From an uncultured Bacteroidaceae bacterium (GTDB lineage: Bacteria; CAIWAD01): a DNA stretch of 64,000 nucleotides. Below are positions 54,472-64,000 of the stretch, in pieces. The notes under the pieces were generated by a model. That model searched no databases, was not told the DNA's origin, and saw nothing but the letters and a program-made list of their open reading frames with translations. Numbering within the stretch: the stretch's first letter is position 1; every line of letters starts with the position of its first letter. Position numbers and translations under genes: made by a program. The stretch covers positions 50,214 through 114,213 of the forward strand of contig CAYFPS010000007.1 of assembly GCA_964345075.1 (NCBI GenBank), in the 5' to 3' direction.

Positions 54472-55851
54472 CTAGAAGCGCAGCGCTTCCATGAAGTCGC
54501 GACAGCTCATTGTATCACAACTGAAGATTGCCTGCTTGACCCGGGCACGAGCAGCATCGTCCAGAAGGCCTGCAGAAAGGCCACCGAACTTGGCGTCGAG
54601 GTCCTCTTCGGTCATGGGCTCACGGGGATCGCCCTTGGGATATTCCAGGTATTCCTCGACTTCACGGCCGTCCCTGGCCTTGATGCGAACACGACTGGGC
54701 TGCTTGGCCGGGAACATCTGCTCGAACTCAAGGCTCGCCTCGCCCTTGATGCGGTCAATCACTTCACGAATCGCCGGATCCTGAATCTTCTCATCGGCGA
54801 AACTTGCCGTGGTGATCTTGCCGTCAACGATGGCTGCAGCAATGCAGTAGGGCAGGCTGTGATCGGCGGTTTCCCGGCTTTCAGGCCGGTACTTGTGCGG
54901 ATCAAACAGGATGTCGCAGGCGCGTGCGATGGTCGTGACCGTCACTTCTTCCACATCCTGCCAGACAAGCCCGCCCTTTTTCATGCACTTGAGCGTAGCC
55001 GAGAGATGGGTGTGCGTCAGGGCTTCCGTCGGGAAGGCCTTCATGCCGCATTCCAGAATCTTCCAGGGGCGTCCGCCTTCCGTTCCCGGAAAAGCACCCA
55101 GCAGGGCGTCTTCATCCCAGCCTTCACCAAAGCAGTGCTGGAAACCCTCCTTGCCCTCGAAGACGGCCTCGGTTCCCGTGTAGCCGTGGCTGGCCATCAT
55201 GGCGGCAAAGACGCCTGCCTGCGTGGCCATGGGATCCACCGTGTTCTTCATCATGGTGAGCTTGCCAGCTGTCGGGCAACCAATGGTGTGACTGTGGCAG
55301 CCGGAAATACCAATAGCATTGACCAGCTGATCCTCATTAAGACCAAGCAGAACGCCGGCCGCAATCGGGCTGACGAACTGGGTCAGAGTGGCATGATGCC
55401 ATCCGCGCTCGCGCACGCCGGGAGTGGCAAAGAGGCAGAGGCGCATTTCGAATTCGTAGGCCAGAGCAATGGCCACGATCACGTCCTTCATGGAAGCACC
55501 GGCCATTTCACCAGCTGCCAGAGCGGCGGGAATCAAATCGGAAGGATGACTGGGATCTTCCTTCCAGTAGATATCATTGAAGTCCAGCGCGCGAATCATC
55601 AGGCTGTTGACCAGACTCGCGTTGACACCTGGCATGCGATCGCCAAAACCGATCAGGGTTGCCTCTTCCTTGCCACCCAGATCGCAGTAAATGCCCTTGA
55701 GTGCCGTGACGTCCTTTGTCTTGACGCTGCCATAGGCGCATCCCACACTGTCGTAGAGATAGCGCTTGACTTCGTGTACGACCTCGGCGGGAAGGTCTTC
55801 GTAGCGCACGCCAAGTGCAAAGCGGGCAATCTGCCTCGAAAAACTGCTCAT
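54472..55851 (-). CDS. prpD: MmgE/PrpD family protein (2-methylcitrate dehydratase-like)
   Basis: Full-length PrpD fold similarity. Confidence 0.75.
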   Translation of the reverse strand: MSSFSRQIARFALGVRYEDLPAEVVHEVKRYLYDSVGCAYGSVKTKDVTALKGIYCDLGGKEEATLIGFGDRMPGVNASLVNSLMIRALDFNDIYWKEDPSHPSDLIPAALAAGEMAGASMKDVIVAIALAYEFEMRLCLFATPGVRERGWHHATLTQFVSPIAAGVLLGLNEDQLVNAIGISGCHSHTIGCPTAGKLTMMKNTVDPMATQAGVFAAMMASHGYTGTEAVFEGKEGFQHCFGEGWDEDALLGAFPGTEGGRPWKILECGMKAFPTEALTHTHLSATLKCMKKGGLVWQDVEEVTVTTIARACDILFDPHKYRPESRETADHSLPYCIAAAIVDGKITTASFADEKIQDPAIREVIDRIKGEASLEFEQMFPAKQPSRVRIKARDGREVEEYLEYPKGDPREPMTEEDLDAKFGGLSAGLLDDAARARVKQAIFSCDTMSCRDFMEALRF

Positions 55852-58581: not shown

Positions 58582-58998
58582 TCAGTAGGTGGGCTTGACG
58601 CCAGCCTGCGACATCATGTAATGAATGGCATCGTAGAGGTCGGACTTTTCGCAGTCCATGCACGTGCCCTTGGCAGGCAGCACGCCATAGTTACCCGTGT
58701 AACCATCCCAGGCATGTGTCACAAGCAGGTCCATCTTCTTGGTGGCATTGGCTTCCCAGCGTGCCTTGTCCGTCAGCGCCGCGGCGCCGGCAACACCTGT
58801 CATGTGGCAGGCAAAGCAGTACTTGTCGTAAATGGCCTTGCCGTTGTCCAGGTTCGCCGGAGTGGCCTGAACAGCCGGGGCAGTGGCTTCCGGAGCCTTG
58901 GTGGCGGGCTTGCTTTCGGCAGCAGGCTTGTCACCGCCACCACAACCAACAGCCAGCAAGAGGCTGGCGCACAGGATCAGATTCAGATGCTTGTTCAT
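58582..58998 (-). CDS. c-type cytochrome lipoprotein (class I, c5-like), two haem-binding sites
   Basis: Lipobox LLAVGC; CFACH and CMDCE motifs. Start trimmed to MNKHLNL with AAAGGAAAAG RBS. Track ORF 58582..59028. Confidence 0.7.
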   Translation of the reverse strand: MNKHLNLILCASLLLAVGCGGGDKPAAESKPATKAPEATAPAVQATPANLDNGKAIYDKYCFACHMTGVAGAAALTDKARWEANATKKMDLLVTHAWDGYTGNYGVLPAKGTCMDCEKSDLYDAIHYMMSQAGVKPTY

Positions 58999-59100
58999 TG
59001 CTTTTCCTTTCATGGACGACAAGGTCAAAAGCTAAGAAAAACAAGTCCCCACGACCAGTTTCCAGGCAATTCTGTGCAGAATAGCCTGAACCTTGCTTCT

Positions 59101-59155
59101 GGTTCACTACGAACCACCCGTTTCATCATGAACTTGTGAAGTTTCTTTTTGAAAC
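59101..59155. promoter_or_regulatory. Two 15-bp palindromes GGTTCactacGAACC and GTTTCtttttGAAAC, 40 bp apart (candidate enhancer/UAS)
   Basis: Centres about 74 and 114 nt upstream of the predicted sigma54 TSS. Confidence 0.45.
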
Positions 59156-59195
59156 GATTTATATCTCTTGACGGGGCATTTCCCAAGTAATAAAC

Positions 59196-59211
59196 TGGCA
59201 AGGAGTTTGCA
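59196..59211 (+). promoter_or_regulatory. Sigma54 (-24/-12) promoter TGGCAAG-gagt-TTGCA
   Basis: Matches TGGCACG-N4-TTGCW with correct spacing. A sigma54-dependent activator gene is adjacent. Confidence 0.6.
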
Positions 59212-59221
59212 GTGTGTCTGA

Positions 59222-59356
59222 CATGGCCGCGACCCACTCAGGGCACAACGAGTGATAGCGACCCGCTGGAAGTGCCCCCCCACTTCCAGCGATTACGGAT
59301 GGGAGACTATCCGATTCCCCCTACAGGCAGCCGGCTCGTCCGGCTGCCCCTTTTTT
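59222..59356 (+). ncRNA. Candidate sigma54-dependent small RNA / leader (~135 nt), structured, ending in an intrinsic terminator
   Basis: 10-bp perfect stem GCTGGAAGTG-cccccc-CACTTCCAGC (59265-59290). Terminator GCAGCCGG-ctcgt-CCGGCTGC-ccc-TTTTTT (59327-59356). Only a 10-codon ORF without RBS. Confidence 0.45.
59327..59356 (+). terminator. Rho-independent terminator immediately upstream of the RBS of the NtrC-like gene
   Basis: 8-bp GC stem, 5-nt loop, T6. No upstream plus-strand gene to terminate. Confidence 0.75.
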
Positions 59357-59366
59357 GGAGGCCTTC

Positions 59367-60839
59367 ATGGCGAGTCCGTTGATCTGGGTACTGGACGATG
59401 ACCTGCAGCAGATTCGGATTCTGTCCTTTCTGCTGGAGGAAGCCGGCTATCGATGCCGCTGCTTCGACCGGGCCGAGGATCTGCTGGCTCGTCTGAGCGA
59501 GATAGAAGAAGCCTCTGCCCTGCTGCTGGATCTGCGCATGCCCGGTCTGGGCGGAGAGGAAGCCTTAAGCGAGATCCGCAAGCAGGAGCCCGGCCTGCCC
59601 GTCCTGATCACCAGTGGACAGCAGAATGTCGATACCGCCATCCAGATTCTGCAGGCCGGTGCCTGGGACTACCTGACCAAGCCCATTGACGACGAAAAGC
59701 TGCTGCTTTCACTAAGCCGCGCCGTCCGGCAGCGAGAGCTTGAGCAGCAGGTGCGCGAGCTCAAGCACAGCAATCAGCGCGGCATGGATCGTCTGATTGG
59801 CCAGAGCGAGGGCATGCGTAAGGTTTACGATCTGATTCGCCGCTCGGCCGAATCGCGCATCCCTGTCTTGATTCAGGGTGAAAGCGGAACCGGCAAGGAG
59901 CTTGTCGCACAGGCCATCCACAATCTCGATCAGCATTTCAAGGGCGAGTTCATCAGCATCAACTGTGCGGCCATTCCCCGCGAACTGGTTGAGAGTGAGC
60001 TCTTTGGCCATGAAAAGGGCTCCTTCACCGGCGCGCACCAGCAACGACTGGGTGCATTTGAAAGAGCTAATGGCGGCACGCTCTTTCTGGACGAGATCGG
60101 CGAGCTGAGTCCCGGCGTGCAGGCCAAACTGCTGCGTGTGCTACAGGAATGGAGCGTGCGCCGTGTTGGTGGCGATCGCGAGATCCGGCTCAACCTGCGT
60201 CTGATCACGGCAACCAAGCAGCAGCTTTCCAGCATGGTGCAGGCGGGAAAGTTTCGCGATGATTTGTATTACAGAATCAACCACATCACCATGCAGCTCC
60301 CACCCTTAAGGGAGCGCAGGCAGGACATGGGTCTCCTGATCAACCACTTCCTTAGCAAGCACAGTCAGAGCTTCGGCAAGGACAACATGATTTCGCCCGA
60401 TGGGGAACTGCTTGACTTCTGTAAAGCCTACACCTGGCCGGGCAATGTCAGACAGCTGGAAAACGCCATCTGCCGCGCTCTGGCTGTATCACAGTCCAGT
60501 TCCATCAGCGTTCAGGACTTCCCGGAAGAGCTGCTCGCCGAATGGAAAGCCATGCAGGAGAGTCCGCCCGGCATCACCGGTAGCCAGCAAACAGCAAGTC
60601 CAACGGGAGTGGAGCTGCGTGTTACAAATCAGGGCAGCGGCCTGCTCCAGCGTCGTGAGACAGACTGGCTGAGTGTTTTCAAGACGAAATCGGAGTTATT
60701 GACTCTGGAACGCGTGCGCGAGCTGTACATCAACCACGCGCTCAAGCTGCACAATGGGGCCTTGCAGGAAACGGCCAAAAGTCTGGGAATCGGCAGGACG
60801 ACTCTCTATCGTCAGCTCAAGGATCCTGCCGGCGATTGA
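59367..60839 (+). CDS. Sigma54-dependent response regulator (NtrC/LuxO family: REC-AAA+-HTH)
   Basis: GESGTGKE; ESELFGHEKGSFTGA; C-terminal HTH; GGAGG RBS. Track ORF from TTG at 59355. Confidence 0.85.
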   Translation: MASPLIWVLDDDLQQIRILSFLLEEAGYRCRCFDRAEDLLARLSEIEEASALLLDLRMPGLGGEEALSEIRKQEPGLPVLITSGQQNVDTAIQILQAGAWDYLTKPIDDEKLLLSLSRAVRQRELEQQVRELKHSNQRGMDRLIGQSEGMRKVYDLIRRSAESRIPVLIQGESGTGKELVAQAIHNLDQHFKGEFISINCAAIPRELVESELFGHEKGSFTGAHQQRLGAFERANGGTLFLDEIGELSPGVQAKLLRVLQEWSVRRVGGDREIRLNLRLITATKQQLSSMVQAGKFRDDLYYRINHITMQLPPLRERRQDMGLLINHFLSKHSQSFGKDNMISPDGELLDFCKAYTWPGNVRQLENAICRALAVSQSSSISVQDFPEELLAEWKAMQESPPGITGSQQTASPTGVELRVTNQGSGLLQRRETDWLSVFKTKSELLTLERVRELYINHALKLHNGALQETAKSLGIGRTTLYRQLKDPAGD

Positions 60840-61257
60840 GGGCGTGCGCCACTTCCAGCATCTGGGCGAGCGTCTGATACCTGCGATTAATCCGGAAAGC
60901 ATTTCGTATACGGGCCCGCAGTTCAATCGGGTCATAGGGCTTGGTAATATAGTCCAGCGCACCTTCGTCGATGGCAGCAGCAATGCGAATTGGCTTGTTG
61001 GTGGCGCTGATGAAAACAACGGGGATGGCACTGGTTGCCGGGTCATCTTTCAGACGACGCATGATTTCAAGGCCGGTCAATCCGGGCAGATCCAGATCCA
61101 GCAGAATGCACGAGGGCCGATCGGCCTTGACCTGCAACAAGCCCTTTTCACCGTCCTCCGCATAAATGATGCGACAGTCCACACCATCCAAATGAAATTC
61201 GATAACGGCCCGCATTGCGGGGTCATCATCCACGATAAGCAGTACATCCTGTGACAT
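60817..61257 (-). CDS. Single-domain response regulator (CheY-like REC)
   Basis: DDD...K receiver motifs. Confidence 0.75.
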   Translation of the reverse strand: MSQDVLLIVDDDPAMRAVIEFHLDGVDCRIIYAEDGEKGLLQVKADRPSCILLDLDLPGLTGLEIMRRLKDDPATSAIPVVFISATNKPIRIAAAIDEGALDYITKPYDPIELRARIRNAFRINRRYQTLAQMLEVAHALNRRQDP

Positions 61258-61265
61258 GGGGGTTC

Positions 61266-63377
61266 CTATTGCCTCTTCAACATGACCAGTGAGTTGATCG
61301 CCGCTTGCATCTCCCGGACAAGCAGCGCCAGTTCAGCCTCCAGTGCCTGTCCCGACTCGCCTTCGCGCGCCAGGTTTTCACAGGACTCGGCCAGCTTCGA
61401 CAATTTTTCAAATCCATAACTGCCGCCACTGCCCTTCAGTTGATGCAGCAGCGACACCAGTGCTTCTTCCTCCTTGTGCTGTGCAGCCAGCATCAGCTCA
61501 TCCACCTGCACTTGCAGATGTTCCAGATAGGCAACCAGAATCGGCAAAAAGCGCGGATTGTCGGCGCGGCTACTGGTACTGATCTCAACCAGATCCTGCA
61601 GGTCCTTCGACTGCGGCAGATCCACCTCTGTCTGCTGCTCCACAACCGAATCACCGCTGGCTACACGTCTGCAACGCTCGATCAGCAGCCTCTCATCAAC
61701 CGGTTTGGTCAGGACTTCGTCAAAACCTGCTTCCAGGCAGCGCTCGCGATCCTGCACCATCGCGTAGGCGGTGAGCGCCACAACCGGACCGGCAAGGCCG
61801 GCTTCCCGCATGCGGCGAACGGCCGTGTAACCATCCATCTGCGGCATGCGTACGTCCATCAGAATCAGATCGAAAGGCTGGCCCTGCGAAAGCGCGCCTA
61901 ATGCGGCGGCCAATCCCTGCGCTCCATCGACAGCCATGCGAACCTTTGCTCCCTGCTCTTCCAGCAGAAAGCGAATGATGCGGCGATTATCCAGACTGTC
62001 ATCCACCAGCAGGATCGATGTATCACGGAGCATTTCCTCGCTTCCAGCTGCAAGCCCTGCCAGCTGGCCGTCCTGCTGATGCGCAGCCGGATCAAGTTTC
62101 ATCGGAACTTCCAGCGTGAATATGCTGCCCACACCCAGCTTGGAACTTACCGTCAGATCGCCCCCCAGCATGCGAGCCAGCCGGCGACTGATAAAGAGCC
62201 CGAGCCCCGAGCCTTCCGTTCCGAAATCGGGCTGATTGCCCGCCTGCCTGAAGGGTTCAAAAATGCGTTCCAGGCGTGAAGCGGGAATGCCCGGACCTGT
62301 ATCACAGACCCGCACATAAAGAATGCGTCGATCTTCTTCACCTGTCGGCTCCAGACTGGCCTTGACGGTAACCGAGCCAGTTGGCGTGAATTTGAGCGCA
62401 TTGGAAATCAGGTTGATCAGAATCTGGCGTATGCGCAGGCGATCGCTGATGCAGGCCTGCTCCAGCCCTCCGCCCTGCTCCAGCCCGAGCACCAGGCCGC
62501 GTTCACGAGCAAAGCTGGCCAGCAGTTCCTGCACTTCAACAAGCAGATTGGCCGGAACCAGCGAGTCCTCATGCAGTTCGACACGATCCGCCTCGATCCG
62601 GCTCAAATCAAGCACATCATTGATCAGCTCGAGCATATGCTGGCCACTGCGCAGAATCTGTCTTGACCAGCTGGCACTTTCCCGCAAACTGATTCCCGAG
62701 CGCTGCATCAAGCGTGCATAGCCGATGATGGCTGTCATGGGCGTACGAATCTCGTGACTCATTCGCGCAAGGAATTCGCTCTTGGCCCGGTTCGCCTCTT
62801 CAGCCTGCTCCTTCAGCAGCATTAATTCATGCTGCATGCGCTCGCGCCGGCGCACTTCACGCTGCATCAGGTCGTGTGACAAACAGCTTTCAACCGTGCG
62901 GGCAAAACGGCCCAGCACACCGTGCAGCATGCGGGCCACCTGAGCGGGCGCATCCTGCTGGGGTTCTGTCAGAAAGAGCTCGATGTGACCCAGCTTGTGA
63001 ATGTGATGGACGAGCATCACGCCGCTATGCGTGGGCTTGAAAGAGAAAAGCTTTTCAAAATCGGCTTCATCGCTGGAACGGATGAAGGGGCAACCCTTTT
63101 CCTCAAGTGCAAGAATAAGCGGGTGATCGTGTTCAAGCACGTTCAGCGAATCCGGGTAGCGCGGCCTGCTGTAGACAAGCCGTGATTCATCCTCGCTGTT
63201 CAGGCGGCGAATGCCATCAAGGCGTGATGCACGAATCCAGAGAGCACACTGTCCCACATTGAAGCGGGTCATCAGGCTGCGGAAAAAGCCCTCGCAGTTC
63301 TCCTTCAGAATCAGCGAGCTGCCAATGGACTGGGAGACCTCAAACAGGGAGGCAAGATGAGCGCTTAGCTGACTCAT
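61266..63377 (-). CDS. Hybrid sensor histidine kinase with REC and C-terminal Hpt domain
   Basis: HEIRTP H-box, HATPase, REC ([11 protein letters not shown]), Hpt ([11 protein letters not shown]). Confidence 0.8.
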
Positions 63378-64000
63378 TAGCGAAGATGCAAGGCGGCAAC
63401 AACCAGTGTCTTGTTGAGGACTTCAATGCACAGGCGGCCGGCGGACGCAATTTCACCCAGAGTCAGAACGCCAAGCGAGACACCCGCCGGGTCAAGTTTG
63501 CTGACTTCCGCCTGTATGCCTTCCAGCTCCCGCGTGTAGTCGTCCTTGAGGTAAAGGATGCGTGATACACAGTCAAAGATCAGCCAGCCGGCCGCCGGCT
63601 TCTCAAGCGGGCTCAGATCGCGCACGACCTCAATTCCCGCCTCGATCAGACTGTCGGGACTGCCGCACAGGATTTGCAGGACCGAGTTTTCCGGCACATC
63701 CCCCACACAAACCAGGCTGCCGTCTTCCAGCAGGGTCAGGGGATCACGCACAATGTCTTCACGACCTGTACGACCCATGCCAAAGGGGAAACCCTGAGCG
63801 TCCTCAAAGAAGTGTGTGGTCCGCACGGTGTAACTGGTTTGCTGGCGAATGCTCTCGCGATAGACCTCAAAGGCGGGCTGCCAGTTCAGTTCGTGAAGGA
63901 CATTAGCGGAGGTTCGTGTTGCAATGAAGGGTCCATCCAGTGGTTGCCAGCCGTGTCTCACACTGTAACTGGAATCCAGTGGCAGAAAAACCAGCAGGGC
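63377..64000 (-). CDS. FIST domain sensor protein (partial, continues beyond window end)
   Basis: FIST-C-like region; 1-nt overlap with the hybrid HK start. Confidence 0.55.

Follow-up and report, generated by a model that had tools for sequence, protein, structure and literature searches.

A candidate sigma-54-dependent small RNA with C-rich motifs encoded directly upstream of an NtrC-family activator gene in an uncultured Bacteroidaceae bacterium

We analyzed a 64,000-nt stretch of genomic DNA from an uncultured Bacteroidaceae bacterium (contig CAYFPS010000007.1, positions 50,214 to 114,213; hereafter the window, in whose coordinates positions are given unless a locus handle precedes them). 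In the 368-nt gap between a cytochrome c gene and a divergently oriented gene for an NtrC-family transcriptional activator lies an element of about 135 nt (59222 to 59356, plus strand) that, judging from its predicted structure and its conservation, most probably represents a new small regulatory RNA (sRNA). More specifically, we give slightly better than even credence to a sigma-54-dependent, trans-acting sRNA with C-rich seeds, the transcription of which would also read through into the activator gene. The element was first pointed out in an inspection of the letters and open reading frames (ORFs) alone (the sequence-only reading), which described a sigma-54 promoter, paired palindromic upstream activating sequences (UASs), and a structured RNA terminating just before the activator gene, in a layout likened to that of Qrr and LuxO. 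All of the listed elements were found where that reading had placed them within the divergent spacer. The sigma-54-driven, activator-linked small RNA gained comparative support from the conservation of promoter and RNA, from substitutions that avoid the stems, and from a comparable unit in a distant clade; the Qrr-like layout did not hold up.

Among 5.8 billion proteins, the activator has a single cluster of close relatives, at 88% amino acid identity, the next matches being at 46%. The locus of this relative species is fully syntenic with that of the window, with a DNA identity of 85% over 10.6 kb. A comparative alignment of the intergenic region, the check that the sequence-only reading had proposed, showed much stronger conservation of the promoter and the RNA body than of the intergenic DNA around them: the window and the relative are 94% identical in the RNA body and 87% in the promoter block versus 64% in the upstream intergenic DNA, with the activator gene at 81.5% and the cytochrome c gene at 88%. 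The core of the promoter block is a sigma-54-type -24/-12 element, TGGCAAGGAGTTTGCA (59196 to 59211, plus strand), which is indeed near consensus, with a single mismatch from TGGCAC-N5-TTGCW, and is unchanged in all 8 related sequences; its flanks are invariant too. The DNA upstream of the block varies, the 5 nt at the predicted start (59220 to 59224) differ (GTGTC versus ACCCG), and conservation resumes from 59225. The transcription start is predicted near 59221 to 59225.

Upstream of this element is an enhancer-like (UAS) inverted repeat, GTTTCA-N24-TGAAAC (59120 to 59155), which occurs once in the 64 kb (0.045 occurrences expected) and is centered 58 nt before the TGGCA. It is conserved as GTTYCA-N24-TGRAAC, with its outer half-sites covarying in the relative's locus L014 (GTTCCA...TGGAAC), and is presumed to be the binding site of the adjacent activator; the same stretch can alternatively be read as two adjacent sites, GTTTC-N5-GAACt and GTTTC-N5-GAAAC, with centers 21 bp apart. 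The two palindromes originally named as UASs, GGTTC-N5-GAACC (59101 to 59115) and GTTTC-N5-GAAAC (59141 to 59155), centered 114 and 74 nt from 59222, are both present in the window. The conserved repeat takes in the proximal one, along with a half-site that had not been listed, but the distal one is not conserved (the relative has GATTCATTCCGGCAC) and probably lies outside the functional unit. As a criterion for an enhancer, we used activator sites roughly 70 to 150 bp upstream and in helical phase with the promoter. A GG-N10-GC core lies upstream of the transcription unit, and the repeat is found at 58 nt in the window and, in the distant clade described below, at 58.5 nt (locus L020) and about 69 nt (locus L069).

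The predicted transcript is highly structured, as had been claimed for this stretch of about 135 nt. Its fold (59222 to 59357) has a free energy of -60.8 kcal/mol compared to -40.4 ± 3.9 kcal/mol for shuffled sequences (z = -5.2), and 0 of 200 shuffles were as stable. From 5' to 3', the fold comprises a two-helix domain (59225 to 59263); a C-loop hairpin, GUGCCCCCCCAC (59264 to 59291); a hairpin with a GAGA tetraloop (59296 to 59313); the unpaired stretch AUUCCCCCUACA (59314 to 59325); and an intrinsic terminator (59326 to 59356), all on the plus strand. The arms of the C-loop hairpin, CGCTGGAAGTG (59264 to 59274) and CACTTCCAGCG (59281 to 59291), are perfectly complementary, so that the C6 loop stands as first described and the stem has 11 bp rather than 10. 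The 12 nt of AUUCCCCCUACA, directly 5' of the terminator, are unpaired in both the minimum-free-energy and the centroid folds and invariant in the relatives. The terminator, recovered in a terminator scan, abuts the GGAGG ribosome-binding site (RBS) of the activator gene as reported, but its stem has 9 bp with 8 GC pairs (59326 to 59348) instead of 8 bp; a 5-nt loop, a CC spacer, and a T6 tract complete it, and only the length of the T tract varies (T5 in the relatives). As the opposite strand lacks a T run, the terminator is oriented on the plus strand. We propose that the C-loop hairpin GUGCCCCCCCAC (seed 1) and the AUUCCCCCUACA stretch (seed 2) are C-rich seeds, and we propose GUGCCCCCCCAC and AUUCCCCCUA as the seed sequences to be used in target prediction.

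The placement of substitutions agrees with this fold. In an alignment of seven window-type sequences (six of them distinct), 11 columns vary, 2 of 76 paired columns as opposed to 9 of 61 unpaired ones (Fisher P = 0.012), and the two variable paired columns pair with each other (U-A in the window, C-G in L068, and C.A in the other relatives). The hairpin loop is C6 in the window and 8 nt long in the relatives, where L066 shows a single C-to-A change. The C run at 59275 to 59281 is C7 in the window, C9 in L014, and CCCACCCCC in L066, and this difference among close relatives suggests that the homopolymer is mutable while the surrounding stem is kept. The 2-nt insertion or deletion in the C run also rules out conserved coding. 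Three small ORFs that span it (59212 to 59382 and 59252 to 59401, plus strand; 59107 to 59283, minus strand) were therefore rejected, as was a fourth (59025 to 59237, minus strand) that spans unconserved DNA, in accord with the original statement that the region holds no credible ORF.

A second instance of a similar arrangement was found in a distant clade, the activators of which (P0007 and P0003) are 45% identical to that of the window and have entirely different neighboring genes. Here, the intergenic region before the activator gene is about 900 nt long and in L020 contains three TGGCA-N7-TGC motifs (4210, 4503, and 4835); the units and promoters extend over L020 4207 to 4320, 4500 to 4622, and 4832 to 4851 and are also represented in L021, L069, L070, and L023. 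A predicted short RNA follows each of the first two motifs and carries an unpaired run of C residues (C6 or C7) immediately before a strong terminal hairpin. A U tract closes both hairpins in L020; in L069, it is missing from unit 1. The third motif, about 165 nt before the activator ATG, is the sigma-54-like promoter of the activator gene itself. Comparing two species within this clade gives a DNA identity of 86% for the activator genes and of 30 to 39% for the intergenic region outside a set of islands. In these islands, identity rises to 80% over promoter 1 with unit 1, 81% over the 3' half of unit 2, 71% over a block preceding promoter 3, 75% over promoter 3 itself, and 88% over the RBS. 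The two species also differ by a compensatory change, U-A to C-G, in the terminator of unit 2.

The resemblance of these units to the window element extends to their control region and their C-rich motifs. Before promoter 2 in L020 stands GTTTCA-N25-TGAAAC, centered 58.5 nt from the TGGCA as compared to 58 nt in the window, and in L069 a 10-nt insertion (alignment A4) shifts the repeat to about 69 nt, i.e., by one helical turn. Unpaired and just 5' of its 16-bp terminator, unit 2 carries GUGCCCCCCCA, the same 11-mer as the loop of the window hairpin with its flanks. Unit 1 carries GAUUCAUCCCCCC, resembling the preterminator GAUUCCCCC of the window, and GAUUCAUCCCCCCAA, just before its terminal hairpin, resembles AUUCCCCCUACA of the window in both position and sequence. 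Since the activator gene is the only gene common to both kinds of locus, the RNA unit appears to be linked to that protein. Moreover, unit 2 is free-standing: it lies about 380 nt from the activator gene, with an unconserved spacer of about 210 nt and a further promoter in between, and we therefore argue for a role of the RNA beyond that of a leader. The module is not general in this group of activators, as four homologs at 43 to 46% identity (L019, L022, L024, and L025) have no matching unit of promoter and C run.

Taking these observations together, we envisage the following mechanism. The phosphorylated NtrC-family activator encoded by the adjacent gene would bind the inverted repeat at 59120 to 59155 and open the sigma-54 promoter at 59196 to 59211. 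Most transcripts would end at the terminator at 59326 to 59356, yielding a stable RNA of about 135 nt that would expose two C-rich motifs, the C6 hairpin loop and the single-stranded UUCCCCCUA before the terminator. These motifs might pair in trans with G-rich sequences at or near the RBSs of target mRNAs, by analogy with sX13 (PMC3771888). The fraction of transcripts reading through the terminator would constitute the activator mRNA, coupling positive autoregulation to the output of the sRNA. We infer transcription, the dependence on sigma-54 and the activator, the efficiency of termination, the action in trans, and the nature of the targets.

Several results weigh against this account. The sigma-54 motif occurs 2 times in the 64 kb, with 4.35 occurrences expected, and by itself is thus not above chance. 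The 94% identity of the RNA body is not unique, as some 4.7% of the windows of this size in the syntenic 10 kb are at least as similar, every one of them in or beside prpD. Covariation is uninformative because variation is too scarce: a single pair varies, and 410 of 500 shuffles equal it, so the structure rests on thermodynamics and on the placement of substitutions. The 2-nt CC spacer between the terminator stem and the U tract may weaken termination. Neither inspection nor a promoter scan revealed a promoter-like site between the terminator and the activator RBS; read-through must therefore supply the activator mRNA in the clade of the window, and the element must act as a leader too. A covariance model of the seven window-type sequences recovers only those sequences and does not detect the units of the distant clade. 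Accordingly, the relationship between the two kinds of unit is one of architecture and motif, in which homology, rather than being demonstrated, would rest on the shared enhancer, its spacing, and the 11-nt motif. A scan of metagenomes with a pattern consisting of a sigma-54 promoter followed by N30-60 and GCCCCCCCA returned 39 loci, none of them homologous to the RNA and none with a relative of the activator nearby. Finally, a search of the 64-kb window for G runs and G-rich RBS-like targets produced nothing convincing.

The obligatory passage of activator expression through the element gives weight to an alternative in which it is a purely cis-acting leader or attenuator, with regulated termination before the RBS setting the level of activator mRNA and the short product being functionless. 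The terminator directly abuts the RBS, and GGCCGC (59225 to 59230) can pair either with 59258 to 59263 (helix P1) or with the 5' arm of the terminator, a riboswitch-like alternative of 6 pairs. However, the alternative fold is weaker by 15 kcal/mol (-45.9 versus -60.8), the bases that would form it are all invariant and hence beyond a covariation test, and no riboswitch, aptamer, or leader family of Rfam was matched. As a unit of the distant clade is separated from the activator gene by the spacer of about 210 nt and a promoter, a leader role cannot explain its conservation, and we regard the purely cis-acting explanation as unlikely, if still the best placed of the competitors. Somewhat more doubtful is a combined scheme in which one sigma-54 transcript would serve as a two-way switch, the choice at the terminator yielding either a trans-acting C-rich sRNA or the activator mRNA. 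In such a switch, the outcome would depend on the partner of the 5' segment, either its complement in helix P1 or the 5' arm of the terminator, and sRNA output would be inversely coupled to positive feedback.

A different question concerns the promoter. A consensus scan identified a sigma-70-like site, TTGACG-17-TAAACT (59168 to 59196, plus strand), overlapping the -24 element. It could be a candidate basal promoter, and both hexamers are kept in the relatives; with 9 of 12 consensus matches and 0.5 sites expected against the 1 found, it would be weak on its own. If the RNA were real but transcribed from this site, TGGCA...TTGCA would be merely the conserved 5' end of the transcript, a proposal helped by the chance-level frequency of the -24/-12 motif. 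We hold it to be improbable: in addition to the modest match of the hexamers, TGGCA-N7-TGC is kept in four independent units beside homologous activators, one of these units keeps an equal distance to the same inverted repeat, and the bases just 3' of the -12 region are the least conserved in the block, as would be expected of a start site but not of an RNA body. We also noted that GGGGCATTTCC (59173 to 59183), in the spacer of the sigma-70-like site, is 91% complementary to GGAAGTGCCCC (59268 to 59278), 84 nt downstream, a segment made up of the loop and 5' arm of the C-loop hairpin. This complementarity is probably due to chance, as its first arm lies upstream of both predicted starts.

The RNA might also bind or sequester a protein that recognizes C-rich RNA, or act in some way other than by base pairing with mRNAs. 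Each molecule exposes two to three C-rich motifs, the window offers no G-rich target, and the targets of the architecturally similar Pxr RNA are reported to be still unknown (PMC11928866). This, too, we hold to have little chance of being correct, as no candidate protein partner is evident, the documented mechanism of C-rich loops is pairing near the RBS (PMC3771888), and the target search covered the 64 kb only. That there is no functional RNA, the conservation stemming from DNA-level control sites or from locally recent exchange of DNA between species, as the even greater similarity of prpD stretches (96 to 98%) might suggest, is very improbable, given that identity falls sharply to 64% just upstream, that substitutions avoid the stems and leave terminator and hairpins intact, and that the distant clade has an analogous unit. 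The stretches concerned, within the prpD-like gene (54600 to 55150), compare with 85% identity over the whole locus; nothing else in the syntenic 10 kb is more conserved than the RNA, and strong constraint or recent DNA exchange could explain these stretches.

The genes flanking the element were characterized by Pfam scans and, for the activator, by protein alignment. The activator gene, with its RBS, occupies 59357 to 60839 on the plus strand (GGAGG at 59357 to 59361; ATG at 59367) and encodes a 490-aa protein with REC, sigma-54 AAA+, and HTH_8 domains, in which the GSFTGA loop and the REC residue Asp55 are intact. A comparison of the helix-turn-helix regions of the two activators, that of the window and that of the distant clade, gave a generic Fis-type pattern only, from which we draw no DNA-binding specificity. 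The divergent cytochrome c gene (58582 to 58998, minus strand; 138 aa) is syntenic in the close relative and missing at the locus of the distant clade, and no conserved sigma-54 motif facing it was found; we do not claim it as a member of the unit. Convergent with the activator gene is a set of minus-strand genes (60817 to 64000), in the same order in the relative, that encode a stand-alone REC protein (60817 to 61257), a hybrid kinase with HisKA-HATPase-REC-Hpt architecture (61266 to 63377), and a FIST protein (from 63377 onward, cut by the end of the window). The Pfam scan thus confirmed the phosphorelay-type domains that had been reported near the activator. On the evidence of adjacency alone, these genes are a candidate phosphorelay feeding the activator; this context, syntenic in the close relative, is missing from the distant activator locus. 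The stand-alone REC gene and the 3' end of the activator gene share 23 nt (60817 to 60839), an overlap that recurs in the relative (L014 7451 to 7473).

Other searches yielded the following. The covariance model detected no second copy of the RNA in the window. Rfam gave no match at the gathering score for the region, the whole window, or short substretches. A scan of a genome collection with the activator protein provided no useful ortholog (best match, 41% identity), and L001 and L002 have no comparable upstream element. Four unrelated contigs from the metagenome pattern scan (L047 5224, minus strand; L049 2586; L062 4242; and L065 229, minus strand) share TGGCATGCCTTATGCA, about 75 nt, a terminator hairpin with a C7 loop, GGAG, and ATG. 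They have no activator homolog near, and as promoter and C run were built into the search pattern, their independent features are limited to the terminator and the ORF. Upstream of the activator homolog P0009, locus L024 has two copies of a direct repeat of about 40 nt, CTGCGCGGGAGTGAGATCTATGTGACGTTCTGATACAGT (L024 4835 to 4905), and the P0009 gene is divergent from a second, PAS-containing sigma-54 activator gene. The best named matches of one conserved enzyme of the window are in metagenome-assembled genomes labeled Candidatus Delongbacteria (78%), Hatepunaea, KSB1, and Calditrichota, and T9SS sorting domains occur in neighboring proteins; both observations hint at, but do not prove, an origin in an uncultured lineage of the FCB group.

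If the reading as a trans-acting sRNA is right, the element would represent a new family of sigma-54-dependent small RNAs, unmatched in Rfam, from a poorly known uncultured lineage, and the design of an activator beside its own sRNA would be extended beyond Proteobacteria and Myxococcota. Comparison has supplied its parts, namely, a promoter and an enhancer repeat the phasing of which is conserved, two candidate seeds rich in C, and a terminator with obligatory read-through. Its practical value is limited, as the organisms are uncultured, each version is found in only two species-level clades, and no target was identified within the 64-kb window.

Among known systems, sigma-54-dependent sRNAs adjacent to the gene of their activator include GlmY (PMC3045617 and PMC8745638), Pxr (PMC5568312 and PMC5684412), and Qrr1 (PMC8043402). 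Judged by gene order, the layout of the window is closest to glmY-glrK-yfhG-glrR and less like qrr1/luxO. In Enterobacteriaceae, the GlrK/GlrR (QseE/QseF) genes lie directly downstream of glmY on the same strand (PMC3045617 and PMC8745638), much as the predicted RNA (end at 59356) directly precedes the activator gene (ATG at 59367) on the same strand. The glmY promoter region likewise has activator sites upstream of a sigma-54 promoter that overlaps a sigma-70 promoter (PMC3045617). Furthermore, glmY-qseE-qseG-qseF of Proteus mirabilis is one operon expressed from the glmY promoter, with none in between (PMC8745638), which matches the read-through requirement of the window locus. The differences are nevertheless considerable. 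The window RNA has no GlmY/GlmZ match in Rfam; GlrR binds three TGTC-N10-GACA sites, accompanied by IHF sites (PMC3045617), whereas the window has GTTYCA-N24-TGRAAC; the two Escherichia coli glmY promoters share one start, whereas the sigma-70-like site of the window would start transcription about 18 nt upstream; GlmY is a RapZ decoy without C-rich seed action; and in the window the activator gene directly follows the RNA, with the kinase genes being convergent.

Pxr of myxobacteria (RF01812; regulator PxrR/Nla19) resembles the candidate RNA of the window in its sigma-54-type promoter, its structure (a multi-stem-loop sRNA of about 108 nt), and its position adjoining an NtrC-like regulator gene. 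The first stem-loop of Pxr is the functional one, and a C-to-A change in its loop inactivates the RNA (PMC5684412); the Rfam consensus of this loop is C rich. Cystobacter has tandem pxr paralogs, each with its own sigma-54 promoter (PMC5568312), which the two tandem units of the distant clade recall. The Pxr model aligns over its full length with 59256 to 59356, placing the C-loop hairpin of the window on the first Pxr stem-loop, at 12.6 bits, which is not significant (gathering threshold, 80; E = 3.9 in a 148-nt search), and it has no match to unit 2 of the distant clade. In addition, pxr lies downstream of pxrR, whereas the RNA of the window lies upstream of its activator gene; moreover, Pxr has been reported from myxobacteria only (PMC5684412). 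A shared ancestry of the module of activator and C-rich sRNA with Pxr/PxrR is a speculative extension.

For the likely mode of target recognition, to which the comparison is limited, the nearest parallel is sX13 of Xanthomonas, together with similar sRNAs, stable stem-loops that use C-rich sequence at the apex to pair with G-rich motifs close to the start of translation, with no need for Hfq (PMC3771888). The hairpin of sX13 in Rfam matches the C-loop hairpin of the window only weakly (10.8 bits, not significant), and sX13 has no known dependence on sigma-54 and no known link to an activator gene. The Qrr RNAs of Vibrionaceae are controlled through LuxO by a relay of hybrid kinase, Hpt, and NtrC-type regulator, and domains of these kinds adjoin the activator of the window. 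The proposed likeness in layout fails, as qrr1, which sits next to luxO and has further copies in some species, is divergent from it (PMC8043402), whereas the RNA considered here is on the same strand and ends at the RBS of the activator gene. The enhancer repeat also differs in sequence, the Hpt of the window is a domain of the kinase itself, alongside which a REC protein is encoded separately, and the link from relay to activator is one of adjacency. Nor did Rfam searches reveal significant homology in sequence or structure to Qrr or to any other family, with no Qrr match even at E values of up to 10 in searches of 148 to 181 nt. Thus, an sRNA under sigma-54 control beside the gene of its activator is an arrangement already known in other bacteria from GlmY, Pxr, and Qrr, and the element described here would be a new RNA family within a kind of system that is itself familiar.

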